IMG/VR virus record: IMGVR_UViG_3300042564_001295
Span: 1-57,576 of that record
Direction: 5' to 3' (one strand)
Source of the DNA: a virus
Taxonomy: Duplodnaviria > Caudoviricetes
DNA: 57,576 nt
The notes under the pieces: generated by a model
The model's database searches: none
The model's input: only the letters and a program-made list of their open reading frames with translations
Told to the model about the DNA's origin: nothing
Program-made: the position numbers and the translations under genes
Shown here: positions 30,290 through 43,068 of the stretch, one piece after another
How the letters are laid out: every line of letters begins with the position of its first letter
Numbering within the stretch: the stretch's first letter is position 1

Positions 30290-30456
30290 CAGTGTACCGC
30301 TTCCTTAGCATCACATTCGCACTCGACCACCCAGTTGTTAAACTGAGTAAACTTGTTTACTTCTACGCCAAGGCCAACTGCTTCATTTACAAAGTGTTGC
30401 AACAGTGCATTATACAGTGCATCGGGCATTGTGTTTTTATCAAATTTAATTTTCAT
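30289..30456 (-). CDS. Small hypothetical protein (55 aa, not in ORF track)
   Basis: Own translation MKIKFDKNTMPDALYNALLQHF...; 1-nt stop/start overlaps on both sides. Confidence 0.55.
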   Translation of the reverse strand: MKIKFDKNTMPDALYNALLQHFVNEAVGLGVEVNKFTQFNNWVVECECDAKEAVH

Positions 30457-30647
30457 TACCAATTCTCAATTCCAGAAATTTCAATTGTAAATTTACCTTC
30501 ATAGCCGTTTATCTCTGTGAAGACCATTAGTGTAGTTATGGATCCAATTCCAGAATCACTGTCTTGCTTTAATTCAAAACATCCTGCTTCCGGAAACTTT
30601 TCCATAACTTCCAAAATTTTCAATACTTCTTCTTTGCTCAAATGCAT
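30456..30647 (-). CDS. Hypothetical protein
   Basis: 63 aa, coupled to neighbours. Confidence 0.6.
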   Translation of the reverse strand: MHLSKEEVLKILEVMEKFPEAGCFELKQDSDSGIGSITTLMVFTEINGYEGKFTIEISGIENW

Positions 30648-31123
30648 TAGATATCTCCATCTTGTCGCATAAACTCGTCACCTGCTAGTGGCACTGGCTT
30701 TTCATCTGCATCGTATGTCCAACCCAATGCTTTCATCATACGATGCTTGACCAGCAAGTTAGGAGCACGAAATCTTTCTGTGTCATCAAATCCCATTGCC
30801 ACACCAACTTCACAAACTGCACCACTACGGCATATGCCTGCAAAACAGTGTACTACAACATTCATATGATTGTCAAGAGCATGTTGCAACAAACGGACAA
30901 GTTCAGCGGCTTGCTCGTGACTACAACGCATAGCTTCATCAAGTGCAAAGTCCTTTTCTTCAATATCCAAGAACTCAAAGTCATGACGTTCTTTGAATTC
31001 GTGTTTTGCAGTTGGCCTCCAACTTGCTGGATCAGTAATGCTGATCAACATGCTATTCTCTCCAGCCGCATGGTGAAATCCAATAGGAATATCAGCGGCT
31101 GCTACATTTTCAATCCACGGCAT
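30647..31123 (-). CDS. Cys-dependent (CX5R) phosphatase
   Basis: VHCFAGICRS. Confidence 0.85.
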   Translation of the reverse strand: MPWIENVAAADIPIGFHHAAGENSMLISITDPASWRPTAKHEFKERHDFEFLDIEEKDFALDEAMRCSHEQAAELVRLLQHALDNHMNVVVHCFAGICRSGAVCEVGVAMGFDDTERFRAPNLLVKHRMMKALGWTYDADEKPVPLAGDEFMRQDGDI

Positions 31124-32760: not shown

Positions 32761-34173
32761 TTACAAAGCGTAACGATCACTCATTACAGTCTTAAGCATG
32801 ATGCCTTCTGGAGTGAACTGATCCAAATCAGCGGCTAGCAAGCTAGTCATTATACTTGGGCTAAATCCACTTACCAATGCGGCACCACTCTTGTCAGCCT
32901 TAACAGGCACGTTGTCTGAACTGTTTAGGTTCCAGAAAACAATCTGTGGCACAGTGTAACCTGCATCTGTGAACTTGCGTTCGATCATTTGCATTGATGT
33001 GTCGTCGTAACGAGCACATTGGTTAAACTGCATGTCTGACAAGATTAGCAACATGGCTGGCATGTCGCCTGCTGGTACTGAACCCTTAACTGCAACGCTC
33101 AAGATCTTGTCCATAGCGGCATGCAAATTAGTGCTCATTTCCCAATCACTCTTGCTCATTTGAGCAACCTTGTCAACAATGTTACCCTTTAGAGTAACAA
33201 GTTGTGGCTTGTCTGAGAAAGTCAAGAAAGTGTCCTTGAACACGCCCTTGTTCTTATCTGCTAGGTACAAGCCCAAGCTAATTGAAACATCCATGCAAGT
33301 CACATTAGTGTTCTTGCCTGCTGGGCAGGACATAGAACCGCTAACGTCTACAATTGGCATGATGCTTGCATCTCCAACGTAGTTTGGCAAAGCATTCCAC
33401 TGTGCCACAATGTGGTCAGTTTCTGTCTTATCCAACTTAGCACGGTAGCTACCGATGACTCCCTTTAACACGTCATGTGGGAAGATTGCGCTGGCGTTAA
33501 CCTTAACAGTCTTATCACCACTTACCAACTTGGCAACATACTCTGCAAATGCAGGAGTGTGACGGCCGAATGCCTTCTTGTAGTTGCGAGCAGCCACAGA
33601 AGGAACGTGACTGAAATTGATGTTATCCCAATCTCCTGCACACATTTGGGTTTCAACAACTGTGGTCATTGTTACCAATGACTTGCGGTACTGCTTCGGA
33701 GTCATTCCGAAGAATGCTCGTACTTCAGCCGCAATCTTACCCTTACGAGGAGTCCACTTTGCAGCCAATCCGTTTTGCGCACGAAGGGCATCGCCCAACA
33801 TGGTATAAGCGGCTGACTTCAGAACTGGGTTTGAGAAGACAAAGATGTCATCCCAACGACCTACTTCTGGAATCTTCTTTAGAAGAGCCAAAGCGGCGTC
33901 TGGGTCACGCTTTTCTAGATGTACTAGAATATCTCGGAACAATTGACGTTCACCAGCACCGCCACGGACATCACGTGCCCATTGTGCAATGCGTAGTGCT
34001 ACGTCAGAGTTTTCTACATAAGCGGCTGTGAAGTCGCCTGTGATGTTCTTACCACGGCTTGCGCCGATCTTGTAGAACAAGTCAACACAAGCCGAAGCTG
34101 TTGACTTACGTGCCTTCATACCATTTTCGGTACGGGCTTCTTGATTTGCTACTGCTGTTACAAATGCGTTCAT
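32761..34173 (-). CDS. DUF2828-family helical + vWA protein (Ro60/TROVE-like architecture)
   Basis: TENG..STASACVDLF, RDVRGGAGER, GRWDD, AAKWTPR; vWA MIDAS DVSGSM, ILSDMQF, FWNL. Confidence 0.85.
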   Translation of the reverse strand: MNAFVTAVANQEARTENGMKARKSTASACVDLFYKIGASRGKNITGDFTAAYVENSDVALRIAQWARDVRGGAGERQLFRDILVHLEKRDPDAALALLKKIPEVGRWDDIFVFSNPVLKSAAYTMLGDALRAQNGLAAKWTPRKGKIAAEVRAFFGMTPKQYRKSLVTMTTVVETQMCAGDWDNINFSHVPSVAARNYKKAFGRHTPAFAEYVAKLVSGDKTVKVNASAIFPHDVLKGVIGSYRAKLDKTETDHIVAQWNALPNYVGDASIMPIVDVSGSMSCPAGKNTNVTCMDVSISLGLYLADKNKGVFKDTFLTFSDKPQLVTLKGNIVDKVAQMSKSDWEMSTNLHAAMDKILSVAVKGSVPAGDMPAMLLILSDMQFNQCARYDDTSMQMIERKFTDAGYTVPQIVFWNLNSSDNVPVKADKSGAALVSGFSPSIMTSLLAADLDQFTPEGIMLKTVMSDRYAL

Positions 34174-34188
34174 TTTCTTTTTACCTTT

Positions 34189-34244
34189 ACAGAATGTATT
34201 TTATTTTCGATTATAGTGAAATTTAAAGTTGCTGTTAACATTCT
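34189..34244 (-). ncRNA. ACAGCAA-box RNA 1 (short)
   Basis: AGAATGT-TA-ACAGCAA...ACATTCT-GT. Confidence 0.65.
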
Positions 34245-34253
34245 AAAACTTTA

Positions 34254-34483
34254 ACAGGATGATCGTGCCAATTTGTTTAGTATTCTGGTCTGACCAATTA
34301 CGGCACTCAGACCCTATCAACATTCATGTTGCCTATTACATGTTTTTCTGTATGTAAATCATATCCGGGCTTTGCCGGCCTATCTATTCCTTGAGCGTCT
34401 ATTTCTAGAAAGCATTTCTGCCTGTTCTTCAACCACTTTCAATAGCAGTTACGTTAGTAGTTTTTAAATTGCTGTAGTCATCC
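34254..34483 (-). ncRNA. ACAGCAA-box RNA 2 (multi-hairpin, probable pseudoknot)
   Basis: GGATGA-CT-ACAGCAA...TCATCC-TGT. Confidence 0.65.
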
Positions 34484-34490
34484 AAATATA

Positions 34491-34647
34491 ACAGGATCGT
34501 TTTCTACTTTTTGTTTTTATCGAGGAGACTTATCGAAACTCCTCTATCTAATCCTACTATTGCTAATAACCTTCAAAGCCAATTAAGGCTCCAGCTATTA
34601 GCATAAGATTAGCAGTCCATGTAATATGAAGTTGCTGTACCGATCCT
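34491..34647 (-). ncRNA. ACAGCAA-box RNA 3 (long internal hairpins)
   Basis: AGGATCG-GT-ACAGCAA...CGATCCT-GT. Confidence 0.65.
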
Positions 34648-34682
34648 AAAACTTTCTTAACAATGTTACTTGCTATACGACT

Positions 34683-34711
34683 ATTATAGTACAAACAACA
34701 TGTGTTGTCTA
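34683..34711 (-). promoter_or_regulatory. Sigma70-type promoter for RNAs 3-2-1 and the DUF2828 gene
   Basis: TAGACA-17nt-TATAAT. Confidence 0.7.
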
Positions 34712-34725
34712 TACATTTTGGTGAA

Positions 34726-34857
34726 ACAGGATACATTTTTAACGACTTTTGCTCTACCACTGAGCTACAACCGACTGCTTTTTAGGCTTGATCGGAAAGT
34801 GAGATTCGAACTCACGACCAAAAGTTTTTCCATGTTAAAAGTTGCTGTTAGTATCCT
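34726..34857 (-). ncRNA. ACAGCAA-box RNA 4: YrlA/Y-RNA-like circularly permuted tRNA mimic
   Basis: AGGATAC-TA-ACAGCAA...T arm, closed acceptor-like stem, D arm...GTATCCT-GT. Confidence 0.75.
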
Positions 34858-34917
34858 AATAAGGGCCACTGGTTAGTGACGATTCCACCATCTAGTTAGA
34901 ATGAACTAGCACATAGC

Positions 34918-34995
34918 TGGAGCAACGGGTGAGATTTGAACTCACGGTCTTCGGGATTTGCAATCCCGTGCATTGGGCCGCTCTGCCACCGTTGC
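34918..34995 (-). tRNA. tRNA-Cys(GCA)
   Basis: Cloverleaf, loop TTGCAAA, U73, CCA. Confidence 0.92.
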
Positions 34996-35003
34996 ATGTT
35001 ATT

Positions 35004-35606
35004 TTAATAATTAAACAACATTTTTCTTGCATCCTCAAAATATGTATGAGGTTTTAATTCTGGAATAATACGTAGTGTTAGTACTACTCGTTCGTTATTT
35101 GAGCCAGTGTTATCCCAATCATGGAATATCTCTGTATTAAATAATATACACTCGCCTTGTTTTGCTATCATACTTTTTAATGGTGTATGATTTTCTTTTA
35201 CGAAACCATCGCATTCTCTGGATGTATTGGTGCGTAGGTTATCTATTGCATACTCTTTTAGATCTTCATCACTATACCAATTAGTAATACACTTATCATC
35301 TAATACTCTACTAACGTAGTTGATACTGAATTTGTTGTTCATTCCGTCTTTATGTGCTCTGTAATATAATCCAGGTTTGCTAATAAACAATGATATTCTA
35401 TTTTTTATCAATTTTATTCTATCTGCCATAGGAATCAAAGACAACATGTGTTGTGCTTGATGCTTTAGTAGAATGTAATTTGTAAATTTATTTAAATTTG
35501 CAATCTCAGGAGTACATTTGTTGCAATAGTCAATTATATCATCGATACCATCGTGGGTAAATCTAATATAATACGGACTACAATCTTCAATAATAGTGTA
35601 TTTCAT
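35004..35606 (-). CDS. 2OG-Fe(II) oxygenase-like protein
   Basis: AHKD...FHDWDN...RVVLTLR. Confidence 0.7.
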   Translation of the reverse strand: MKYTIIEDCSPYYIRFTHDGIDDIIDYCNKCTPEIANLNKFTNYILLKHQAQHMLSLIPMADRIKLIKNRISLFISKPGLYYRAHKDGMNNKFSINYVSRVLDDKCITNWYSDEDLKEYAIDNLRTNTSRECDGFVKENHTPLKSMIAKQGECILFNTEIFHDWDNTGSNNERVVLTLRIIPELKPHTYFEDARKMLFNY

Positions 35607-35615
35607 ACTATAAAA

Positions 35616-35690
35616 TGGTAGGACGTGACGGGATCGAACCGCCGACAGCCACCGTGTAAGGATGGAGTTCTACCTCTGAACTAACGTCCC
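35616..35690 (-). tRNA. tRNA-Val(TAC)
   Basis: Cloverleaf, loop CTTACAC, CCA. Confidence 0.92.
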
Positions 35691-35699
35691 ATATTCTCA

Positions 35700-35930
35700 T
35701 CAAACTCGTTTCAAATATTCTGCACCAACTTTGCCACTTTGGATTTCCAGCAGTGCAGTTAGATTAGAATACACATGTTCACGCTTGTCGCTTTCACGAT
35801 GTTGGCGTTTGATCTCACGTGCTCTTGCTGCCGCAATCAGCACGAGATTAAATCTGTTGCCGCCTGATAGGTCAACACATTGATTGGTGTCAATTTCAGT
35901 GCCGCGACTAAGTCCGATTAGTTTACTCAT
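35700..35930 (-). CDS. rpoZ: RNA polymerase omega subunit-like protein
   Basis: GNRFNLVLIAAARAREI...TALLEIQSGKV. Confidence 0.8.
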   Translation of the reverse strand: MSKLIGLSRGTEIDTNQCVDLSGGNRFNLVLIAAARAREIKRQHRESDKREHVYSNLTALLEIQSGKVGAEYLKRV

Positions 35931-35950
35931 ATATGCCTCATTAAAATGTT

Positions 35951-35979
35951 ATTATACTGTGTTTGGGTTGTGATGTCAA
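35951..35979 (-). promoter_or_regulatory. Consensus sigma70 promoter
   Basis: TTGACA-17nt-TATAAT. Confidence 0.85.
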
Positions 35980-35986
35980 TGCTTTT

Positions 35987-36061
35987 TGGCCTCGCCACCC
36001 GGAATCGAACCAGGATCAAAGGTTTAGGAAACCCTTATTCTATCCATTGAACTACAGCGAG
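35987..36061 (-). tRNA. tRNA-Arg(CCT)
   Basis: Cloverleaf, loop TTCCTAA, CCA. Confidence 0.9.
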
Positions 36062-37138
36062 TTAGCCAATAATTTTTAAAACCTCTGCAAAAGTATCCTT
36101 GTAGGATATGTTTCGTTTTTGATCCAGCATTTCCATATTTTCAACCAGTTTTTGAAACTTGCCCGGAACTTCAGGATGAGATTTTAACAAACGAGTTATG
36201 ATATGGTCGGTTCCAAACTTGTCTTCTATATGCTGTCTTAGCTTTAATGGAGTAGCATCTATGCCCCAAACACCAAAGCATGGACTAACTTGCAATCCAG
36301 AAAACTCATTGCTTCTACTGGGCCATGATCTTTTTGAATGCCAGGTTTCTAATTCTTTAAAATAAAAGATATTCATAGGATTAGCTGTAAACTGTATGTA
36401 AAAGCCCAGCTTGTCTTTTAATATATTATCATAGTGTAGCATGTTATGCTCTACTTTTTTCCAACTCAGCGGCCAACGTATGTAATCAAACTGCTGATTC
36501 ATTCCATCTATGCTGAATGCAAGATCAACCTGTTTAAATGTTGACCATAATTCTATCAATTCAGAATCTGGCAAAATACTACCGTTTGTGTTATAGAATA
36601 CTTCTACATTTGACGGAGTAGTTACACGTTTCAAAAAATCTACATTGTGTTCACTTAGTAATGGTTCTCCACCCACAAAGTCCAAACGGGTGAGTTTATC
36701 AAAGTTGGTAAAAGATATTAATTTTTGATATTGTAGTGAATAATTTTTTAATTTAGCATTGGGGTTATTTTGTTTCTGCCAAAGACTGCTAGAATGCGGC
36801 CCACAGATTGTACATGCCGCATTACATGTTAAATCGATCTGTACCGCAATGTGATACATATCACCGTCCACTGCATCTTCTGGTATAGAAGTTTTGGCAA
36901 CTTGTCTATGACTGACTCCATATTGGTTTTGCTCGCGTCCAAGGCATTCATGGCAGTTTTTTTCAGTATCGGCAAGTACATTTTTTGTAAACTGTCGTCT
37001 AACTGAAGTTAGTTGTATTTTATGTTCTATAGGCGTGCTACTTGGAAGAATCCAACAGCATGGTTGATACACAATGTTGCCATCTTTTTCAAGAAACCGA
37101 AAAGAGTTACTTAGTTTTCTACAAAATTCGTTGGCCAT
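36062..37138 (-). CDS. Radical SAM protein inserted in the tRNA array
   Basis: CNAACTIC, VGGEP, NTNGS; start moved to MANEF to avoid overlap with tRNA. Confidence 0.9.
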   Translation of the reverse strand: MANEFCRKLSNSFRFLEKDGNIVYQPCCWILPSSTPIEHKIQLTSVRRQFTKNVLADTEKNCHECLGREQNQYGVSHRQVAKTSIPEDAVDGDMYHIAVQIDLTCNAACTICGPHSSSLWQKQNNPNAKLKNYSLQYQKLISFTNFDKLTRLDFVGGEPLLSEHNVDFLKRVTTPSNVEVFYNTNGSILPDSELIELWSTFKQVDLAFSIDGMNQQFDYIRWPLSWKKVEHNMLHYDNILKDKLGFYIQFTANPMNIFYFKELETWHSKRSWPSRSNEFSGLQVSPCFGVWGIDATPLKLRQHIEDKFGTDHIITRLLKSHPEVPGKFQKLVENMEMLDQKRNISYKDTFAEVLKIIG

Positions 37139-37153
37139 TTTTGTTTTCCTATT

Positions 37154-37229
37154 TGGTTGCAGAGGATGGATTCGAACCACCGACCTCTAGGTTATGAGCC
37201 TAGCCAGATACCACTTCTAACACTCTGCG
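37154..37229 (-). tRNA. tRNA-fMet(CAT), initiator-like
   Basis: C1:A72 mismatch, loop CTCATAA; only two G-C pairs at bottom of anticodon stem. Confidence 0.85.
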
Positions 37230-37235
37230 TCAACT

Positions 37236-37309
37236 TGGTGGAGGTTAAGAGAATCGAACTCTTACGAAGACCTTGCAAAGGTCCCAGGCTACCATTACAT
37301 CAAACCCCC
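37236..37309 (-). tRNA. tRNA-Ala(TGC)
   Basis: G3:U70, loop TTTGCAA, CCA. Confidence 0.9.
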
Positions 37310-37314
37310 GAATA

Positions 37315-37391
37315 TGGTCGGAGTACAAGGATTCGAACCTTGGACCCCCTGGTCCCAAACCAGGTGCGCTACCAGACTGCGCTACACTCCG
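37315..37391 (-). tRNA. tRNA-Pro(TGG)
   Basis: Canonical cloverleaf, CCA. Confidence 0.95.
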
Positions 37392-37401
37392 AAAAATTGT
37401 G

Positions 37402-37475
37402 TGGAGCGGGATGGGAGAATCGAACTCCCGACATTAGATTGGAAATCTAAGGTAATGCCATTTTACGAATCCCGC
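37402..37475 (-). tRNA. tRNA-Gly(TCC)
   Basis: Loop TTTCCAA, U73, CCA. Confidence 0.92.
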
Positions 37476-37574
37476 ACACTTTATTAGAATACACTCATGC
37501 CTTTTTCGTCAGAGGATGGTGGCCAGTCCTTACTACCCAAACTATGTTCGAGCTGAATGTACTTTAATAAAGTG

Positions 37575-37776
37575 TCCGGCTACTCACACCACATGAGCCC
37601 CGGACTGAGCTGTTACTCTGTCCATAACATTTGTTCTTCTGGAAAGGTGCTAAACCTCACCCAATGCGTTCTAGTATCCCTTAACTCAGAGAACTAATGG
37701 TCATAGCATTGAATACCCGGCGCTCTCTATGGTGACTGCCCCACCCACTTTCTTAACGGAAAAAGTGTAATCCGGG
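37575..37776 (-). ncRNA. Candidate structured ncRNA (~200 nt)
   Basis: Closing helix CCGGATTAC/GTAGCCGG and several internal hairpins, no ORF. Confidence 0.5.
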
Positions 37777-37781
37777 TTTCT

Positions 37782-37855
37782 TGGTGCCCCAGTAAGGAAT
37801 CGAACCTTCTTCTAATGCTTACAAGGCAATTGTAATACCAATATACTACAAGGGC
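37782..37855 (-). tRNA. tRNA-Thr(TGT)
   Basis: Loop CTTGTAA, CCA. Confidence 0.88.
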
Positions 37856-37863
37856 AATATTTA

Positions 37864-38088
37864 TTATCCTGCTGTACTTGCTGTACCAGTGTCGTTGGTC
37901 ACATAACCAGTTGAGCCATTGCCACGTGGTGCATTTCTATCACGTGTAGGAGTTTTGATAACAACTTCACTGCATAGTTGTGCATCAATCATTGCACGTT
38001 TCCACTCATTACGCTTTACTGGATCTACAATAGATGCCAGCATGGTCTTTGTGGGCTTTCTTAATTTGAATGTCTTACCTGGTTTCAT
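37864..38088 (-). CDS. Small basic hypothetical protein
   Basis: 74 aa, AAAGG RBS. Confidence 0.6.
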   Translation of the reverse strand: MKPGKTFKLRKPTKTMLASIVDPVKRNEWKRAMIDAQLCSEVVIKTPTRDRNAPRGNGSTGYVTNDTGTASTAG

Positions 38089-38142
38089 ATTTTACCTTTG
38101 TTAAATTCTGGCGGAACGACTGAGTTCCTGATTTTCTTATTT

Positions 38143-38232
38143 TGGCGGAGAGACCGAGACTCGAACTCGGAAGCCGGATTACGCCGACCGATGGATTAGC
38201 AATCCACTCCAATACCATTATGGGACCTCTCC
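38143..38232 (-). tRNA. tRNA-Ser(GCT)
   Basis: Long variable arm, loop TTGCTAA, G73, CCA. Confidence 0.92.
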
Positions 38233-38592
38233 TAAATCTTTTACATCGTCTGGCTTAATGTGATGAACACCTTTACCGTTCATCTTATCTATCGGCATGT
38301 ACACAACTTTATCAATATTTGACAGATAGATAGCCCATCCATCTATAAGATTTCTGTCTATTGGTCTGCCTTTTCCATTTATAACAGTTGTTGCTGATAT
38401 CTCATAATAGTTTCTTTTTTCATATAAGGATCTGTACTTTACTTGCAATCTACGAACTTGTCCAGATTTGTCTAATGATATTAAATCAACTGGGCTATGA
38501 TCGTCAAACGGTGTAAAACAATGATATCCTTTACTATACAAATCTGCTATTACTTTAATTAAGCCTAAATTACCTTTTTCATTAACATTCAT
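38218..38592 (-). CDS. PD-(D/E)XK homing-endonuclease-like protein
   Basis: KGNLG..PVDLI..RLQVKY motif typical of intron/tRNA-associated PD-(D/E)XK nucleases; GGAG RBS. Confidence 0.8.
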   Translation of the reverse strand: MNVNEKGNLGLIKVIADLYSKGYHCFTPFDDHSPVDLISLDKSGQVRRLQVKYRSLYEKRNYYEISATTVINGKGRPIDRNLIDGWAIYLSNIDKVVYMPIDKMNGKGVHHIKPDDVKDLGEVP

Positions 38593-38647
38593 GACTAGCT
38601 CCTGCTTTGTTTATTTAGCAGATGAGCCATCTGTTATCCGTATAACT

Positions 38648-38734
38648 TGGTACGAGAGACGGGACTCGAACCCGTAAGCCCATTACAGGCGGCAGATTTT
38701 AAGTCTGCTGTGTATACCATTCCACCACTCTCGC
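38648..38734 (-). tRNA. tRNA-Leu(TAA)
   Basis: Long variable arm, loop CTTAAAA, CCA. Confidence 0.93.
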
Positions 38735-38754
38735 ATTATTTCTTGCTTGTGCTT

Positions 38755-38783
38755 ATTATACTGCAAGCGTCACAAAATGTCAA
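38755..38783 (-). promoter_or_regulatory. Consensus sigma70 promoter
   Basis: TTGACA-17nt-TATAAT. Confidence 0.85.
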
Positions 38784-38802
38784 CACTTATTTCGAATTAT
38801 TC

Positions 38803-38876
38803 TGGCGTACCCACTAGGACTCGAACCTAGACTGACGGTTTTGGAGACCGCGATGCTGCCATTACACTATGGATAC
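38803..38876 (-). tRNA. tRNA-Trp(CCA)
   Basis: Loop CTCCAAA, CCA. Confidence 0.92.
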
Positions 38877-39001
38877 ATAAAAAGGCACTTGCTGTGACGC
38901 TTGAATTCATGGTAGCCCTACTCTTCATGGCCGGTCCTTGTGCATAGTCGACATTGACAAGTTTTTCGGTGTTCCATTGTAGCTACTCAGCAAGTATTGA
39001 T

Positions 39002-39091
39002 TGGCGGAAGTAGTAGGATTCGAACCCACGGACCCTTTCGAGCCTTCAGTTTTCAAGACTGCTGCCTTAAGCCATGCTCAGCCATACTTCC
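39002..39091 (-). tRNA. tRNA-Ser(TGA)
   Basis: Long variable arm, loop CTTGAAA, G73. Confidence 0.92.
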
Positions 39092-39097
39092 ATATTT

Positions 39098-39173
39098 TGG
39101 CTCCCCGAGTACGGATCGAACGTACGACATCTTCGTTAACAGCGAAGCGCAACTACCTCTGTGCTATCGGGGA
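39098..39173 (-). tRNA. tRNA-Asn(GTT)
   Basis: Loop CTGTTAA, CCA. Confidence 0.92.
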
Positions 39174-39179
39174 ATTGAT

Positions 39180-39264
39180 TGGTGGAGATTACTGGGATCG
39201 AACCAGTCGTGCCCGAAGGCGGCGGATTTACAGTCCACTGCATCACCATTGATGCTTCATCTCC
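39180..39264 (-). tRNA. tRNA-Tyr(GTA)
   Basis: Long variable arm, loop CTGTAAA. Confidence 0.92.
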
Positions 39265-39270
39265 AATTAT

Positions 39271-39354
39271 TGGTGCCCAGGGAGAGACTCGAACTCTCAA
39301 TCCTTTCGGCAGTGGCTTCTAAGACCACCGTGTATACCATTCCACCACCTGGGC
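39271..39354 (-). tRNA. tRNA-Leu(TAG)
   Basis: Long variable arm, loop CTTAGAA. Confidence 0.93.
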
Positions 39355-39445
39355 AATACTTTACATATAAAAACACACTCAAGTCCGCGGCACGGAAGGC
39401 ACTATACCCGCAATGGTCTATGACCAGTCCTAATGTGTTTTTATA

Positions 39446-39520
39446 TGGAGACGCTACGGGGAATCGAACCCCGCTTTACGGGATGAAAACCCGTTATCCT
39501 GACCGATAGATGATAGCGTC
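39446..39520 (-). tRNA. tRNA-Glu(TTC)
   Basis: Loop TTTTCAT, CCA. Confidence 0.88.
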
Positions 39521-39575
39521 AAATTGTCTTTTAAATTTTTAAGGAGCATTGCTAAACTTGTTAGCGTATGTGACT

Positions 39576-39604
39576 ATTATATAGCCTATGCTACGCTGTG
39601 TCAA
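39576..39604 (-). promoter_or_regulatory. Consensus sigma70 promoter
   Basis: TTGACA-17nt-TATAAT. Confidence 0.85.
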
Positions 39605-39634
39605 TGCTTTTTTGAACTAATTGCAAAATATATT

Positions 39635-39709
39635 TGGTGGGCCCTGCTGGGATCGAACCAGCACTGTCGGTTTCGAAGACCGAAGTGATATCCATTTCAC
39701 TAAGGACCC
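39635..39709 (-). tRNA. tRNA-Arg(TCG)
   Basis: Loop CTTCGAA, CCA. Confidence 0.9.
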
Positions 39710-39710
39710 T

Positions 39711-39787
39711 TGGTGCGGCTGAAGGGATTCGAACCCCTGACCCACGAGGTAGAAGCTCGTTGCTCTAATCCACTGAGCTACAGCCGC
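39711..39787 (-). tRNA. tRNA-Arg(TCT)
   Basis: Loop CTTCTAC, CCA. Confidence 0.93.
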
Positions 39788-39796
39788 AATTAAAAT

Positions 39797-39870
39797 TGGT
39801 GCTCTTAGAAAGAATCGAACTTTCATTACTTCCATACCAAGGAGGCGTTCTACCATTTAACTATAAGAGC
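39797..39870 (-). tRNA. tRNA-Thr(GGT)
   Basis: Loop TTGGTAT, CCA. Confidence 0.88.
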
Positions 39871-39871
39871 A

Positions 39872-39949
39872 TGGTACCCCGGGTGAGATTCGAACTCACA
39901 CGATTCTCCTTTTGAGAGAGACGCCTCATACCAATTGGGCTACCGGGGC
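39872..39949 (-). tRNA. tRNA-Leu(CAA) with short variable loop
   Basis: Loop CTCAAAA, 5-nt variable region. Confidence 0.85.
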
Positions 39950-40004
39950 ATTGAATTAACACAAGTTGTTCACCGTACAACTTGTAAAACGGGGGTCTGT
40001 TGAA

Positions 40005-40221
40005 TTTGTAAGTAGTAGAGCCACTTTAATCTCTACCATTCACCCGATTGCACTGGTCCGGACGGGAAGTGGTGCATCACTTGGGATACTTGTCCAGCGT
40101 ATAGACCTTTCTACCTCGGACACTACGTGCCCGGGTGGGGATCGAACCCATTTGCCTTCTACTATAAAGTACCTTCGAAGAATACAGTATAGCGTGACTT
40201 TCTCTTGCTGACACTTACAAA
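40005..40221 (-). ncRNA. Structured ncRNA with T-loop and RNase P-like motifs
   Basis: Closing helix TTTGTAAGT/ACTTACAAA; GAGAAAGTCAC near 5' end; internal TGGGTTCGATCCCCA. Confidence 0.5.
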
Positions 40222-40224
40222 ACT

Positions 40225-40300
40225 TGGTGCACCCTGTTGGAATCGAACCAACTTCAACGGCTCTTCAGACCGCCGCTATGACCACATCAGCTAAAGGTGC
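40225..40300 (-). tRNA. tRNA-Phe(GAA)
   Basis: Loop CTGAAGA, CCA. Confidence 0.9.
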
Positions 40301-40307
40301 ATATACT

Positions 40308-40381
40308 TGGTAGTTCCTGAAAGAATCGAACTTTCGTCAATGCAATGTCAATGCACCATTCTCCCATTGAACTAAGGAACT
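40308..40381 (-). tRNA. tRNA-Val(GAC)
   Basis: Loop TTGACAT, CCA. Confidence 0.88.
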
Positions 40382-40393
40382 AAAATCTACTTA

Positions 40394-40466
40394 GGGGTGA
40401 CCACTGGGAATTGAACCCAGATAAGCGGAATCACAATCCACGACTTTACCATTAAGTTATGGCCAC
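40394..40466 (-). tRNA. tRNA-His(GTG), no encoded CCA or G-1
   Basis: Loop TTGTGAT, C73, ends CCT. Confidence 0.88.
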
Positions 40467-40484
40467 ACCTAAGTAGATTAAAAT

Positions 40485-40559
40485 TGGTACCGCCAAAAGG
40501 AATCAAACCTCTATTCCCACGTTCGTAGCGTAGTGTATTATTCATTATACTATGGCGAT
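40485..40559 (-). tRNA. tRNA-Arg(ACG), somewhat degenerate
   Basis: Loop CTACGAA; D-loop GA and T-loop TTTGATT deviate. Confidence 0.75.
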
Positions 40560-40564
40560 ATATT

Positions 40565-40638
40565 TGGCAGGGGCACTAGGGATCGAACCTAGACTGACAG
40601 AGTCAAAGTCTGTTGTGCTACCATTACACAATGCCCCA
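40565..40638 (-). tRNA. tRNA-Gln(TTG)
   Basis: Loop CTTTGAC, CCA. Confidence 0.92.
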
Positions 40639-40644
40639 ACAATT

Positions 40645-40718
40645 TGGAGCGGGATAGGAGAATCGAACTCCTGACTAAACCTTGGCAAGGTTTCGTTTGA
40701 CCATTAAACTAATCCCGC
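40645..40718 (-). tRNA. tRNA-Gly(GCC)
   Basis: Loop TTGCCAA, CCA. Confidence 0.92.
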
Positions 40719-40727
40719 ATAAAGATA

Positions 40728-40968
40728 TTAGTTAAAGACGCTGAGAGTTTTGGTTGACGTATTCGGTCCAGCCACCCAGTACTTACAGTACCGCTCTACT
40801 AGTCTAGCGTAACATGGAGCACCATTTGTCAACTAGGACCGCCCATGCTGTAAGCACTGATCCATCTTCGTCAACTGGAGTAAGGTTTATAACTATCAAC
40901 AACCGAAGTTTTCCACTCTTCCATCGTTTCTCTTGCGAGACTCCTTGGCACCTTGCGTCTTTAACTAA
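40728..40968 (-). ncRNA. Candidate structured ncRNA (~240 nt)
   Basis: Perfect 14-bp closing helix TTAGTTAAAGACGC/GCGTCTTTAACTAA plus nested helices. Confidence 0.55.
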
Positions 40969-40990
40969 CACATTTAGTTATCTTTAAATT

Positions 40991-41065
40991 TGGTGGTAAC
41001 GGTGAGATTCGAACTCACACCGGGCAGCGTATGAAGCTGTTGCACAACCATTATGCTACGTTACC
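40991..41065 (-). tRNA. tRNA-Met(CAT) elongator (or Ile2)
   Basis: Loop TTCATAC, paired 1:72, CCA. Confidence 0.88.
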
Positions 41066-41145
41066 ATAGAAAAACACACTCGGGGATGTGCTGAAAGTAC
41101 CCCTTGTTGATCCTAAATCTTTATGTTTTAGAATGTGTTTGTCTA

Positions 41146-41221
41146 TGGTAGGACCGCCCGGACTCGAACCGGGAATTGGCAGATTAAAAGTCTGCTGTGA
41201 TAACCATTTCACCACGATCCC
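41146..41221 (-). tRNA. tRNA-Lys(TTT)
   Basis: Loop CTTTTAA, CCA. Confidence 0.93.
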
Positions 41222-41226
41222 ATGTA

Positions 41227-41303
41227 TGGTCCACAGCGTCAGATTCGAACTGACACCTCATCGGTTAAGAGCCGAGTACGCTACCGTTAAACGCCAGCTG
41301 TGG
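41227..41303 (-). tRNA. tRNA-Lys(CTT)
   Basis: Loop CTCTTAA, CCA. Confidence 0.85.
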
Positions 41304-41422
41304 ATAGTTACGTATTGAATTTTCTTTTACGTGCCTATCCAAGACCATACATGGGATCTCAGAAGACACTAAAGTTTAGCAGAGCTTCGCTTCATTGTGT
41401 TACCTCTTTTGTTTATGTGTTA

Positions 41423-41451
41423 ATTATACACTTAGTCACGACTGTTGTCAA
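41423..41451 (-). promoter_or_regulatory. Consensus sigma70 promoter
   Basis: TTGACA-17nt-TATAAT. Confidence 0.85.
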
Positions 41452-41563
41452 TCGCTTTCTTTTGTGCTTGGCGTTCTGATTTCCAGAACACTCGTTTCCA
41501 ATCCTTAAGGTGTTTCCACCACTGAGGACTCTTTGTTAAGTTACCTTGTTTGACATTTGCCAT
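41432..41563 (-). CDS. Small basic Trp-rich protein (43 aa, not in ORF track)
   Basis: Own translation MANVKQGNLTKSPQWWKHLKDWKRVFWKSERQAQKKAIDNSRD; AAGGA RBS. Confidence 0.6.
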   Translation of the reverse strand: MANVKQGNLTKSPQWWKHLKDWKRVFWKSERQAQKKAIDNSRD

Positions 41564-41580
41564 ACTAGTTCCTTTATAAA

Positions 41581-41637
41581 ACAGGATGCTTATTTTTCAA
41601 TTAAAAGTTGAATTTTTGAATTTGCTGTTCGCATCCT
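41581..41637 (-). ncRNA. ACAGCAA-box RNA 5 displaying a Lys(UUU) anticodon stem-loop
   Basis: AGGATGC-GA-ACAGCAA..TTCAA-CTTTTAA-TTGAA..GCATCCT-GT. Confidence 0.7.
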
Positions 41638-41641
41638 AAAC

Positions 41642-41733
41642 TGGTACCAGCGGAGAGGATCGAACTCTCTCAAGAACGCTAATCTGGCGCTAAAAGGTGT
41701 ATAAGACCTCTCTGACTTCCAAGTCTCGCTGGC
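41642..41733 (-). tRNA. Atypical tRNA-Ile(TAT)-like
   Basis: Acceptor, T arm and CCA intact; minimal D arm, long variable arm; loop CTTATAC. Confidence 0.65.
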
Positions 41734-41741
41734 ATAAAAAT

Positions 41742-41817
41742 TGGTCTCTCTGCTAGGATTCGAACCTAGACCACACGGCCCCAAACCGTGTACGCAACCT
41801 GATAACGCTTCAAAGAG
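41742..41817 (-). tRNA. tRNA-Pro(TGG), second copy
   Basis: Loop TTTGGGG, CCA. Confidence 0.82.
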
Positions 41818-41824
41818 ATAAAAT

Positions 41825-41899
41825 TGGTGGAGGCCGAGGGAATCGAACCCTTCTAGACAAGATGCTTGCAAGGCAACTCCGTAGCCCACTACTGCCCCC
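41825..41899 (-). tRNA. Atypical tRNA-Ala(TGC) with truncated D arm
   Basis: G3:U70, loop CTTGCAA, D arm GTAG-TGGG-CTAC. Confidence 0.7.
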
Positions 41900-41906
41900 A
41901 ATTGTT

Positions 41907-41981
41907 TGGTACTGTCGACGGGTATCGATCCCGCTTCTCCACCTTGAAAGGGTAGCGTCCTAGCCACTAGACGACGACAGT
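41907..41981 (-). tRNA. tRNA-Glu(TTC), second copy
   Basis: Loop CTTTCAA; T-loop ATCGATA. Confidence 0.85.
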
Positions 41982-41988
41982 GTAAAAA

Positions 41989-42049
41989 ACAGGATAGCAT
42001 TTTTGGCTTTTTTTCAAGAAAAGGTTTTTAAATTTGCTGTTGCTATCCT
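41989..42049 (-). ncRNA. ACAGCAA-box RNA 6 displaying a Ser(UGA) anticodon stem-loop
   Basis: AGGATAGC-A-ACAGCAA..CTTTT-CTTGAAA-AAAAG..GCTATCCT-GT. Confidence 0.7.
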
Positions 42050-42054
42050 AAAAT

Positions 42055-42128
42055 TGGTCCTCTCGTATGGAATCGGACCATCATCGTTCGATTATCAGTC
42101 GAATGCTCTACCATTGAGCTACAAGAGG
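42055..42128 (-). tRNA. tRNA-Ile(GAT)
   Basis: Loop CTGATAA; T-loop TCCGATT. Confidence 0.85.
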
Positions 42129-42133
42129 AAATT

Positions 42134-42208
42134 TGGCGGCTCCAAGGAGAATCGAACTCCTATTAATGGCGTGACAAGCCACCGTACTAACCATTATACT
42201 ATGAAGCC
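42134..42208 (-). tRNA. tRNA-Asp(GTC)
   Basis: Loop TTGTCAC, G73, CCA. Confidence 0.92.
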
Positions 42209-42214
42209 AAATTT

Positions 42215-42302
42215 TGGTGGATCTTGATGGAATCGAACCACTTGCCGCCACCCCACTTGTTAATGGCTACCGGGTTACAGCCGGCAATGGGGGACAAGAT
42301 CC
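42215..42302 (-). tRNA. D-armless tRNA-Tyr(GTA)-like RNA
   Basis: GGATCTTG/CAAGATCC-A-CCA, GCCGG-CTGTAAC-CCGGT, T-loop TTCGATT, no D arm. Confidence 0.6.
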
Positions 42303-42583
42303 ATAACACACTCACGACCGGTAATTACCAATCCATAAGCAAACTATGTCTGCTTATAAAGAATGTGTATATTAAAACATACTGATAACGCCACTATGTG
42401 TACTGTACTGTGAGCACAGCCGTCCCTTTCAGTATGCTTTAATATGACAGATTTTTCGCTCTAGAAAAAGAGTTTCATCCTTGCCACCGCCCGTTCGCTC
42501 CGTGTTTTAAGTGCAGAGCCAGGACCTCGTTTCCTGTATATTCACACTTTGCTTCAACGACTGCCTTGGCAATCTCAGCGTCT

Positions 42584-42620
42584 AAAAACAAAAAACCCCA
42601 GGGTTTTTAATCCTAGGGTC
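42584..42620 (-). terminator. Intrinsic terminator (attenuator) ahead of the tRNA array
   Basis: GACCCTAGG/CCTGGGGTT hairpin followed by TTTTGTTTTT. Confidence 0.8.
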
Positions 42621-42647
42621 CTTGAAGTTTGTTATGTAAGTTTTAAG

Positions 42648-42794
42648 TTACACTACAGTCCTCCGGACCCTTGAAATCTCTGGTGTGCGATCATATGATA
42701 AACTTCCGCAATTAATCATAGACCAACCAGAGGCTATAAAGCCTGCCAATTTGGGCATTGTATTAAATTGTTGATGTTTAACGTTCGATTGCAT
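42648..42794 (-). CDS. Putative leader peptide (48 aa, all 20 amino acids; not in ORF track)
   Basis: Own translation MQSNVKHQQFNTMPKLAGFIASGWSMINCGSLSYDRTPEISRVRRTVV; lies between promoter and terminator. Confidence 0.7.
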   Translation of the reverse strand: MQSNVKHQQFNTMPKLAGFIASGWSMINCGSLSYDRTPEISRVRRTVV

Positions 42795-42852
42795 TTAGTT
42801 TCTCGTTTATCCTTTGTTGCCAACAAGCACCATTGCCTGCTAACTAGTCCTA

Positions 42853-42881
42853 ATTATAGTGCCTTTCAGCACACTTGTCAA
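42853..42881 (-). promoter_or_regulatory. Consensus sigma70 promoter of leader/tRNA array
   Basis: TTGACA-17nt-TATAAT. Confidence 0.9.
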
Positions 42882-42951
42882 CAACTTTTGAAATCTTTCT
42901 TTGTTGTATTTTCACAACACTGTCTGACGCCTTGCTTGCTAACTTGTTTCT

Positions 42952-43068
42952 ATTGTACAGTTAATTAGTCTCTGTGTCAACATGTTTTTGTCTTTTTGGA
43001 CAAATTGTTTTTCATAGACACCTTCTTAACAGTCTTTCTATTGTATGTTTATTTAGTCTCTTTGTCAA
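42952..43068 (-). promoter_or_regulatory. Two tandem related sigma70 promoters
   Basis: TTGACA-CAGAGACTAATTAACTG-TACAAT and TTGACA-AAGAGACTAAATAAACA-TACAAT. Confidence 0.75.

Follow-up and report, generated by a model that had tools for sequence, protein, structure and literature searches.

We suggest that two short RNAs, which we call RNA 5 and RNA 6, belong to a Y-RNA-like family that serves a divergent phage Ro60-like protein (DUF2828/DUF7788) and displays mimics of the anticodon arm of transfer RNAs (tRNAs); on balance, and by comparison of sequences, we regard this as their probable identity. Both are encoded on the minus strand of a 57.6-kb piece of giant-phage DNA from the virus record IMGVR_UViG_3300042564_001295 (the whole piece, 57,576 nucleotides, is referred to below as the window), where, without being tRNAs themselves, they flank four tRNA genes in the interval 41581-42049. 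Each is built on a scaffold that is found again in front of the gene for the Ro60-like protein, and each encloses within it a small hairpin with the 7-nucleotide (nt) loop of a tRNA anticodon arm. The scaffold-RNA feature is real and conserved, and what was computed here comprises the scaffold, its linkage to the gene for a Ro-fold protein and the selected anticodon-like arm of the RNA 5 family.

Ro60 and Y RNA form a classic ribonucleoprotein, in which the RNA modules decide what the ring protein touches. Ro-like phage proteins, Y RNAs whose T/D-arm body mimics a tRNA, and a counter-defence role for one member of the protein family are already known or suspected. A CAGCAA-box scaffold family, or the display of an isolated anticodon arm, was found described neither in Rfam 15 nor in full-text literature searches, supplementary phage Y-RNA lists not being covered. 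If our reading is right, it would add a second scaffold RNA family, one that is widespread and accompanies the DUF2828 proteins, a large branch of the Ro-like group, and a module showing the anticodon arm alone, which is the part of the tRNA cut by many phage-defence nucleases. It could also supply the RNA partners that these Ro-like proteins have lacked and explain the position of their genes next to phage tRNA clusters, and it would amount to a new route by which phages interfere with proteins that read or cut tRNAs.

A scaffold RNA family and a linked Ro60-like gene

In the scaffold a closing helix of the form (U)AGGNU.../...ANCCU has a single-stranded (A/U)CAGCAA box just within its 5' strand; on the 3' side there are an A-rich internal strand and a GUU tail. 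Exact copies of ACAGCAA number 24 in the window, as against 14.0 +/- 3.3 in shuffles, none of 100 of which reached 24, and at six of the 24, all on the minus strand, the box stands in the full arrangement of closing stem, box, complementary stem and then UGU. RNA 5 and RNA 6 lie in the tRNA array, 7.4-7.9 kb from the Ro-like gene, while RNAs 4 to 1 are placed head to tail at 34188-34856 on the minus strand, directly upstream of that gene (open reading frame (ORF) 34173-32761; Table 1). A search by regular expression in loosened form, admitting G-U pairs, any C[ACT]GCA box and lengths up to 450 nt, gave 1670 pairs over the two strands, most of them spurious, and was replaced by a covariance model, R1, which describes the scaffold only: 22 diverse short members were aligned, the eight outer pairs were structured, and the cargo was left without structure. 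Among these 22 seed sequences the box positions C14, A15, G16, C17, A18 and A19 are invariant. In the alignment of RNA 5-like sequences described below, the outer helix is 95.1% paired, with changes on both sides at four of its eight pairs. R1 recovers RNA 5 at 41579-41640 (69.3 bits, E=2.2e-11) and RNA 6 at 41987-42052 (62.8 bits, E=5.8e-10); the long-cargo RNAs 2 and 3 fell short of E<=0.01 and were both identified by the exact pattern. No family of Rfam 15 (4227 families) reached its gathering score on the scaffold elements.

The linkage between scaffold and gene extends far beyond the window. R1 made 146 matches at E<=0.01 in the window and 80 related viral loci, and a further 123 in 65 of 78 additional viral loci, where protein identity was 63-96%. 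In bacterial and archaeal assemblies, with labels such as Gammaproteobacteria, Izemoplasmatales, Bacilli, Chloroflexota and Woesearchaeota, it made 45 matches at E<=1 next to homologs of 33-67% identity, and 22 of these, in 17 of 80 loci, reached E<=0.01. Every one of the 314 matches is on the strand of the Ro-like gene, and most lie no more than a few hundred bases upstream of it. More divergent loci have UUCAGCAA or UACAGCA as their box and CUGUU or CCGUU as their tail.

Cultured phages repeat the arrangement to varying degrees. In Synechococcus phage BUCT-ZZ01 the homologous gene is preceded by the scaffold (E=1.4e-8), in Listeria phage A511 by three tandem copies, and mycobacteriophage Faith1 has weak matches downstream of the gene (E 0.05-0.06). 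Escherichia phage Alf5 is borderline for R1 (E ~1); two copies were identified by eye (L239, ~5711-5790 and ~5872-5950), each with a GACCNN stem, a UUACAGCAA box and a GGU tail. They stand among the first tRNA genes downstream of the Ro-like gene, where they flank an unannotated tRNA-like sequence between tRNA-Glu and tRNA-Tyr, and 252 records of FelixO1-like phages conserve this region. R1 found no convincing match (E>=0.79) close to the homologs of Aeromonas phage Aeh1 and Vibrio phage ValKK3. Where R1 is weak or null near the homologs of Aeh1, ValKK3, Faith1 and Alf5, the scaffold is either diverged or absent.

The partner in this linkage is predicted to be a divergent Ro60-like ring protein, with the TROVE fold and without membership of TROVE at the sequence level. 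In Pfam the ORF matches DUF2828 and DUF7788 only, in PHROGs it falls in PHROG 850 ('RNA-binding protein'), and a sequence search against the PDB gave no matches. A profile search against PDB sequences gave a weak match to the Ro60 vWA domain (E=0.049), with the MIDAS (metal-ion-dependent adhesion site) residues aligned to the Ro60 motif; the MIDAS residues D276, S278 and S280 are invariant in the 97 aligned sequences. An AlphaFold2 model made from 97 homologs has a predicted local distance difference test score (pLDDT) of 90.8, and when it was searched against the PDB with Foldseek the 12 best-ranked chains among the matches listed were all Ro60/TROVE (E 2.9e-8 to 2.6e-5), including Thermus phage phiLo Ro60 (the best), Xenopus and human Ro60 and Deinococcus Rsr. 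These alignments are full length (~500-550 columns), with template-modelling scores (TM-scores) mostly of 0.5-0.6. The family comprises 6243 representatives at E<=1e-3, and homologs occur in at least 706 cultured-phage records, among them FelixO1-like, A511-like (Listeria A511) and T4-like phages, Aeh1, ValKK3 and mycobacteriophages; those of the mycobacteriophages carry the annotation 'Ro-like RNA binding protein'.

The earlier note on this DNA had called the short RNAs protein-scaffolded, and that description gains from the strand-specific co-occurrence of a shared scaffold with a Ro60-like-fold gene across very distant phages. Judged by this co-occurrence, the scaffold RNAs are very likely partners of the Ro-like protein. 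Their anatomy is that of Y RNAs, because the ends are paired into a stem, the inner module varies and several RNAs accompany one Ro gene. The module can be tRNA-like: the cargo of RNA 4 combines T-arm, acceptor and D-arm, which is why this RNA matches the Rfam YrlA family RF02553, although at 29.1 bits (E=4.7e-4) it stays short of the gathering score of 69.

Hairpins of the short RNAs

It had been proposed from the sequence of the window that RNA 5 and RNA 6 display exact anticodon stem-loops, and for both the comparison of sequences and loops bears this out. The cargo of RNA 5, UUCAA-CUUUUAA-UUGAA, has the anticodon loop of the window's own tRNA-Lys(ttt), and that of RNA 6, CUUUU-CUUGAAA-AAAAG, has the loop of its tRNA-Ser(tga); both loops have U33, a pyrimidine at position 32 and a purine at position 37. 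Neither site holds a complete tRNA by ARAGORN or by the Rfam tRNA model, and neither RNA contains a tRNA-like T/D-arm module, each having only its 17-nt hairpin. YrlA does not match at the coordinates of either RNA, and a 19-bit YrlA match at 42082-42188 covers neighbouring tRNA genes. RNA 6 is fitted closely between two tRNA genes, starting 6 nt past the CCA of tRNA-Ile(gat) (end 42055) and ending 6 nt short of tRNA-Glu (start 41981).

The support for these small hairpins is comparative. From 244 aligned R1 matches, the 201 of at most 76 nt gave 140 unique sequences, which were sorted into classes, and the cargoes of the short members fell into 43 clusters at an 80% similarity cut, with 200 shuffles as the null. 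A 7-nt loop is present in 19 of the 43 clusters (shuffle mean 3.4, maximum 9 in 200), and in every one of these U occupies loop position 2 (null 0.9); in 12 of the 19 the stem has at least 5 base pairs (bp), and five clusters carry a loop equal to a tRNA loop of the window (null 0.02). The earlier note had suggested testing homologs for enrichment of the anticodon-loop pattern YU-NNN-RN: 11 clusters fit YU-NNN-R, against a null of 0.2, and 24 of the 43 clusters have no 7-nt loop.

Of 25 distinct 7-nt loops, 23 have U33, 19 have A37 and 16 have a pyrimidine (C or U) at position 32. Ten of the 25 are real anticodon loops when set against the 107 distinct loops of the 1603 tRNA genes of these phages, and the tRNAs matched are Ser-UGA, Lys-UUU, Thr-UGU, Tyr-GUA, Asn-GUU, Arg-UCU, Cys-GCA, Ser-GGA and two Ile-UAU. 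Permuted loops equalled tRNA loops 0.41 times on average, or 0.98 times with position 2 held fixed, and ten was reached in none of 2000 permutations. The same loop also recurs on unrelated stems in different phages (CUGUUAA on two, CUGUAAA on two, xUGCAAA on three). A tRNA gene lies within 10 nt of 42 of the 73 short RNAs with a 7-nt loop; among the 81 RNAs of the class whose loops have 9-10 nt there is one such case. The mimic stems are rich in A and U, the real anticodon stems of these phages in G and C, and the short hairpins are therefore not recent copies of tRNA genes.

The RNA 5 class makes the strongest case. Its 23 distinct sequences share a 5-bp stem and the loop CUUNUAA, mostly with a further helix of 2-6 bp outside the stem. 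Conservation is at least 90% at six of the seven loop positions and complete at five of these, the loops being CUUUUAA, CUUGUAA, CUUCUAA and a single CUUUUUA. Beneath this loop the stem turns over (UUCAA/UUGAA, UUGAA/UUCAA, UUUGA/UCAAA, UUAGA/UCUAA, UCAAA/UUUGA, UUUCA/UGGAA) while the arm helix stays 98.3% paired, three of its five pairs having changed on both sides. The covariation score of the whole structure was reached in none of 500 shuffles, and pairing falls from 94.7% to 25-44% when partners are slid by 1-3 columns. In a relative (L145:760-864; also L146), the scaffold carries a hairpin, the arm UUUGA-CUUAUAA-UCAAA and a T-arm, and lies exactly between tRNA-Phe and tRNA-Leu with no ARAGORN call; by its sequence it looks in effect like a tRNA body whose acceptor stem has been swapped for the Ro-type scaffold. 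The RNA 6 class retains CUUUU...AAAAGCC and a loop of 7 nt whose second position is U, while the other loop positions vary. Taken together, these comparisons make it probable that the short hairpins are selected anticodon-arm mimics, the anticodon-arm reading being well supported for RNA 5 by its conserved loop and covarying stem, and moderately supported for RNA 6, whose relatives share less of the loop.

The proposal of exact anticodon stem-loops did not extend to RNA 1. Its string does equal the arm of the window's tRNA-Ile(gat), TTCGA-CTGATAA-TCGAA, minus two G, as had been pointed out, but the class in relatives has stems of 4-6 bp and loops of 9-10 nt whose sequence varies (examples are AAGCATATC, ACCATAATC and GCTATAAAA). 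It is always the last element ahead of the gene. In RNA 1 the box region GUUAACAGCAA and the cargo loop ACUAUAAUC overlap a sigma-70-like promoter match, TTAACA-17-TATAAT at 34238-34210 on the minus strand, some 30 nt upstream of the start of the Ro-like gene, and in relatives GAAUGUUAACAGCAA is kept and the loops are similar to a -10 element. The 9-10-nt loops and the promoter overlap speak against a tRNA-Ile anticodon arm, and that reading was rejected; the element may be a promoter, a protein-bound autoregulatory leader, or both.

Candidate role and competing explanations

We propose that the scaffold would be the docking site for the ring protein, as its co-occurrence with the gene suggests, and that the enclosed part would be an exchangeable module. 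In long members this module is tRNA-like (T and D arms) or of unassigned fold, and in short members it is a 5-bp stem and 7-nt loop that would copy the anticodon arm, with U33, mostly A37 and A38 and a variable 'anticodon'. The short members would presumably be cut from a polycistronic transcript by the enzymes that mature the adjoining tRNAs, which is the obvious route for RNA 6 because it is 6 nt from each flanking tRNA. On the resulting ribonucleoprotein an anticodon arm would be offered to proteins with a specificity for anticodon loops, most likely tRNA-targeting defence nucleases, which might be titrated or tethered, or enzymes of tRNA repair or modification. The outcome would be counter-defence.

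Statements on published systems in this section draw on excerpts of the reports. The YrlA-type Y RNAs (RF02553; Chen et al. 2014, PMC4201824) are the closest parallel: like RNAs 1-4 they lie no more than ~2 kb from a Ro60-type gene, often several per locus, and like the RNAs of the window they have paired 5' and 3' ends, a stem that in YrlA bears the protein site, and an enclosed module that mimics part of a tRNA. They differ in motif, which is GNCGAA(N0-1)G in YrlA and (A/U)CAGCAA with a CUGUU tail here, and in partner, a TROVE-domain Ro60 as against a DUF2828-type Ro-like protein. Unlike YrlA, moreover, the short RNAs of the window show the anticodon arm, the sole tRNA part lacking from the YrlA module in the Rfam consensus, and members of the window family are scattered in tRNA arrays as well as grouped at the gene. 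YrlB and Yrn2 resemble the short RNAs in being the second, smaller RNA of the same Ro protein, a hairpin with a small loop; the excerpts of PMC4201824 report no anticodon-like 5-bp/7-nt arm for them, and that description sets them apart. Thermus phage phiLo (PMC12135203; PDB 9KOP, 9L5Y) likewise combines a phage Ro60 fold with two upstream Y-like RNAs, Yrl1 and Yrl2, but its protein is a TROVE-domain Ro60 with ~16% identity to that of the window, its RNAs have the CGAA motif in a large bulge, and their proposed partner is host PNPase, an anticodon-arm module going unmentioned in the excerpts of that report.

The likeness that bears most directly on function is to gp130 of the Felixounavirus phage Bas63, which has a Ro60-like structure, is encoded directly upstream of a tRNA cluster and was shown to be a counter-defence factor against the defence protein Ppl (PMC11482910). 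Its gene arrangement is also that of the Alf5 homolog, 36.7% identical to the window protein, of which gp130 is a putative ortholog. The authors guessed that some Bas63 'tRNA genes' could be Y RNAs; their report, in the excerpts, identifies no RNA partner, whereas here a defined scaffold RNA family has two copies among the tRNAs of Alf5. By analogy, the gp130 result supports a counter-defence role for Ro60-like phage proteins, and with homologs in model phages of E. coli K-12, one of which has a counter-defence phenotype, the idea is directly testable. Phage tRNAs that resist or replace nuclease-cut tRNAs (van den Berg et al. 2023, PMC10264068; PMC11455837) are a further parallel: they can counter tRNA-cutting nucleases and so share with our proposal a conflict over the anticodon loop and an RNA as countermeasure. 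Those tRNAs, however, are full, functional and feed translation, whereas the window RNAs set the arm alone on a protein-binding scaffold and cannot decode.

Several points weigh against our reading. In YrlA-type RNAs the site bound by Ro is defined by a GNCGAA(N0-1)G or CGAA motif, which the scaffold does not have, and the protein does not match Pfam TROVE even at E<=10. Thermodynamics alone gives neither small hairpin: folding z-scores are -2.05 and -1.81, the hairpins are marginal (~-0.7 kcal/mol or unpredicted), and the minimum-free-energy folds of RNA 5 and RNA 6 are without them. Of the 25 distinct 7-nt loops, 15 match no tRNA loop, nine are without pyrimidine 32 and six without A37, to which are added the clusters noted above that have no 7-nt loop. 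In the RNA 6 family the loops drift (CUUGAAA, CUGUAAA, CUCGAAA, AUUGAUA, AUGGAAA, AUCAUUC and others) and the stem hardly covaries. The sequences compared are related, so that the shuffle nulls overstate significance, and the seeds of R1 included anticodon-like cargo, which may slightly favour such members. RNA-library cover of RNA 5 and RNA 6 could include DNA carry-over. Finally, gp130 counters Ppl when expressed alone, from plasmid or T7, and the protein can therefore act without phage-encoded cargo RNAs; Ppl itself is an ATPase-PHP protein (PMC11482910) that is not known to be an anticodon nuclease.

Several competing explanations have to be set against this background. That RNA 5 and RNA 6 are decayed tRNA fragments, spacers or terminators of the tRNA array would suit their location between tRNA genes and their U-rich ends, and is nonetheless highly improbable: the scaffold also precedes the Ro-like gene, where termination would silence that gene, its conservation, with covarying pairs, reaches over hosts as far apart as Listeria and cyanobacteria, and the stems are unlike real tRNA anticodon arms. 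A scan for a G+C-rich stem, a 3-8-nt loop and a U run found nothing terminator-like at 41580-41636 or 41988-42048, and the terminator reading was rejected. It is less far-fetched, and still in our estimation unlikely, that there is no mimicry and that these are minimal Y-like RNAs (cf. YrlB, Yrn2) whose hairpin merely closes the scaffold or gates the ring, a 7-nt U-turn loop being generic in A/U-rich sequence. The weak hairpins, the drift of RNA 6-type loops and the majority of loops that equal no tRNA loop all fit, and the RNA 1 class shows that the scaffold tolerates other loops. What such an account does not explain is that the RNA 5-family loop is conserved through complete turnover of its stem, that CUGUUAA, CUGUAAA and xUGCAAA recur on unrelated stems, that exact tRNA loops are found ten times where at most one would be expected even with U33 fixed, and that L145:760-864 sets such an arm in a tRNA-like context next to a T-arm.

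If the arms are mimics, they could act as baits for the host's anticodon nucleases (PrrC, RloC, PARIS AriB, colicin-like or VapC-like enzymes), titrating or sensing them and so shielding host or phage tRNAs, with the ring stabilising the bait or passing the enzyme on, a possibility that we entertain with considerable reserve. Displayed loops do copy real anticodon loops, and a variable 'anticodon' amid fixed positions 33, 37 and 38 is the expected look of an exchangeable specificity. In the family with the strongest conservation the loop displayed is CUUUUAA, as in tRNA-Lys(UUU), which PrrC and AriB target; that both enzymes cut tRNA-Lys, which had been cited in favour of baits, agrees with the published work available in excerpt. 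The ~34 phage tRNAs and the possible RNA end-healing enzymes of the window fit a tRNA-centred conflict, and gp130, a putative member of the protein family, is a counter-defence factor. On the other hand, so many anticodon-nuclease targets are known that nearly any anticodon would 'match', and known anticodon nucleases often require tRNA modifications or the tRNA body. The decoy loop is also the phage's own tRNA-Lys loop, so that a sensitive loop of the host and a resistant one of the phage are not set apart by the data, and the defence that gp130 countered, acting without cargo RNAs, is not one known to cut tRNA. Decoying anticodon nucleases as the specific job of the short hairpins is accordingly put forward here with hesitation.

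The ribonucleoprotein could instead be a platform for tRNA repair or quality control, on which the arm recruits or competes for a repair or modification enzyme (kinase, phosphatase, ligase or anticodon-loop modifier) and the ring deals with tRNA that is broken or misfolded, a role already put forward for Ro60 in systems with Y RNA and RtcB; we consider this rather improbable. In most of the loops on display U36 or A36 stands before A37-A38, the context typical of a heavily modified position 37. Neighbouring genes on the strand of the Ro-like gene encode a P-loop kinase similar to polynucleotide kinase, a DSP phosphatase and a metallophosphoesterase. In the excerpts available, Ro/TROVE with a tRNA-like partner has been described as an RNA-repair platform in jumbo phages, and the Salmonella rsr-yrlA-rtcBA operon responds to damaged tRNAs. 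Against it, no RNA ligase and no RtcB were found in the record, a weak objection for a record of ~16% of a genome, and no mechanism explains the need for an isolated arm instead of a tRNA-like body.

In its most general form our proposal would be that DUF2828-type Ro-like proteins use a universal CAGCAA-box scaffold RNA with exchangeable cargo, and that the anticodon-arm copies are programmable decoys or adaptors against tRNA-targeting immunity. The slot would then be loaded with Lys, Thr, Arg, Asn, Tyr, Cys, Ser and other arms, and the drift of the 'anticodon' would be the trace of an arms race. We offer this proposal, in both its parts, as a speculation.

The window and its tRNA array

Table 1. 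Positions of the RNAs, genes and tRNAs discussed (window coordinates).
Feature	Position	Strand	Description
RNA 5, short box RNA	41580..41636	-	GGAUGC-GA-ACAGCAA-AUUCAAAAA-UUCAA-CUUUUAA-UUGAA-AAAUAA-GCAUCC-UGUU; closing stem 41636-41631 / 41589-41584; box ACAGCAA 41628-41622; hairpin stem 41612-41608 / 41600-41596, loop CUUUUAA 41607-41601; tail UGUU 41583-41580
RNA 6, short box RNA	41988..42048	-	GGAUAGCA-ACAGCAA-AUUUAAAAAC-CUUUU-CUUGAAA-AAAAG-CCAAAAA-UGCUAUCC-UGUU; closing stem 42048-42041 / 41999-41992; box 42040-42034; hairpin stem 42023-42019 / 42011-42007, loop CUUGAAA 42018-42012; tail UGUU 41991-41988
RNA 4	34725..34856	-	scaffold with YrlA-like tRNA-like module (T-arm, acceptor-like stem, D-arm); R1 34.8 bits
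RNA 3	34490..34647	-	scaffold with ~130-nt cargo and T-arm-like hairpin; cargo class recurs in relatives
RNA 2	34253..34483	-	scaffold with ~200-nt cargo without assigned fold; class seen again in relatives
RNA 1	34188..34243	-	scaffold just upstream of the ribosome-binding site of the Ro-like gene; 9-nt loop; R1 60.1 bits
Ro60-like protein gene	32761..34173	-	470 aa; helical-repeat ring and vWA domain, MIDAS D276-x-S278-x-S280 (predicted)
Possible RNA end-healing genes	29166..31123	-	downstream of Ro-like gene, same strand (Pfam, PHROGs)
tRNA-Lys(UUU)	41146..41221	-	arm GCAGA-CTTTTAA-TCTGC; anticodon loop copied by RNA 5
tRNA-Ser(UGA)	39002..39091	-	anticodon loop copied by RNA 6

The record is ~16% complete by CheckV, and the close relatives of the window are contigs of 345-356 kb. 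The minus strand of the window carries 34 tRNA genes and one transfer-messenger RNA (tmRNA) according to ARAGORN and Rfam. Megablast of 33000-43000 against cultured phages gave tRNA-sized matches only. Perfect sigma-70-type promoter matches are interspersed through the tRNA array, and a near-perfect one lies upstream of RNA 3. The end-healing candidates are a DSP-type phosphatase (31123-30647), a polynucleotide-kinase-like P-loop kinase (30289-29825) and a metallophosphoesterase (29771-29166), with assignments in PHROGs to 505 'polynucleotide kinase' and 547 'phosphoesterase'; these genes may belong to the Ro-like system.

RNA-library contigs from four runs, at least 90% alike, cover RNA 5 and/or RNA 6, the strand and ends of transcripts not being readable from contigs. 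Cover is scant or nil in bins 35086-35416 and 36079-37071, and we draw no inference from these bins or from differences in depth. A small ORF of ~43 codons with a ribosome-binding site (41433-41564, minus strand) starts 15 nt past RNA 5 and ends inside a perfect-consensus promoter match at 41451-41423, ahead of two tRNA-Lys genes. Between RNA 5 and RNA 6, at 41642-41733 on the minus strand, ARAGORN calls a 92-nt tRNA-Ile(tat) with its anticodon at position 31, for which the Rfam tRNA model gives nothing at its gathering score or at E<=10; the gene may contain an intron or specify an aberrant tRNA, or the call may mark some other tRNA-like RNA.

Elsewhere in the array, four minus-strand gaps of 250-300 nt have no ORF or tRNA call (37480-37780, 39950-40225, 40720-40990 and 42210-42450). 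RNA-library contigs cover 37581-37751 and 40079-40209 with a single mismatch, and a sub-threshold tRNA-Sec-like Rfam match lies at 42218-42303. Rfam added a tRNA at 39183-39264 that ARAGORN had missed. The minus-strand ORFs within the array encode a PD-(D/E)XK endonuclease-like protein (38218-38592), an Rpb6/omega-like small protein (35700-35930) and a radical-SAM protein (36062-37180). Three radical-SAM/SPASM proteins are encoded close to one another at 19574-24592, two TctC-family solute-receptor-like ORFs lie at 45588-47285, and a weak QueC-like ORF is found at 48536-49429. The tmRNA, at 53761-54230 on the minus strand, is permuted according to ARAGORN, which reads its tag as ANANTFEYVQVPFTVSAMNDREFALAA, and scores 135.7 bits with Rfam tmRNA_permuted and 110.1 bits with beta_tmRNA.

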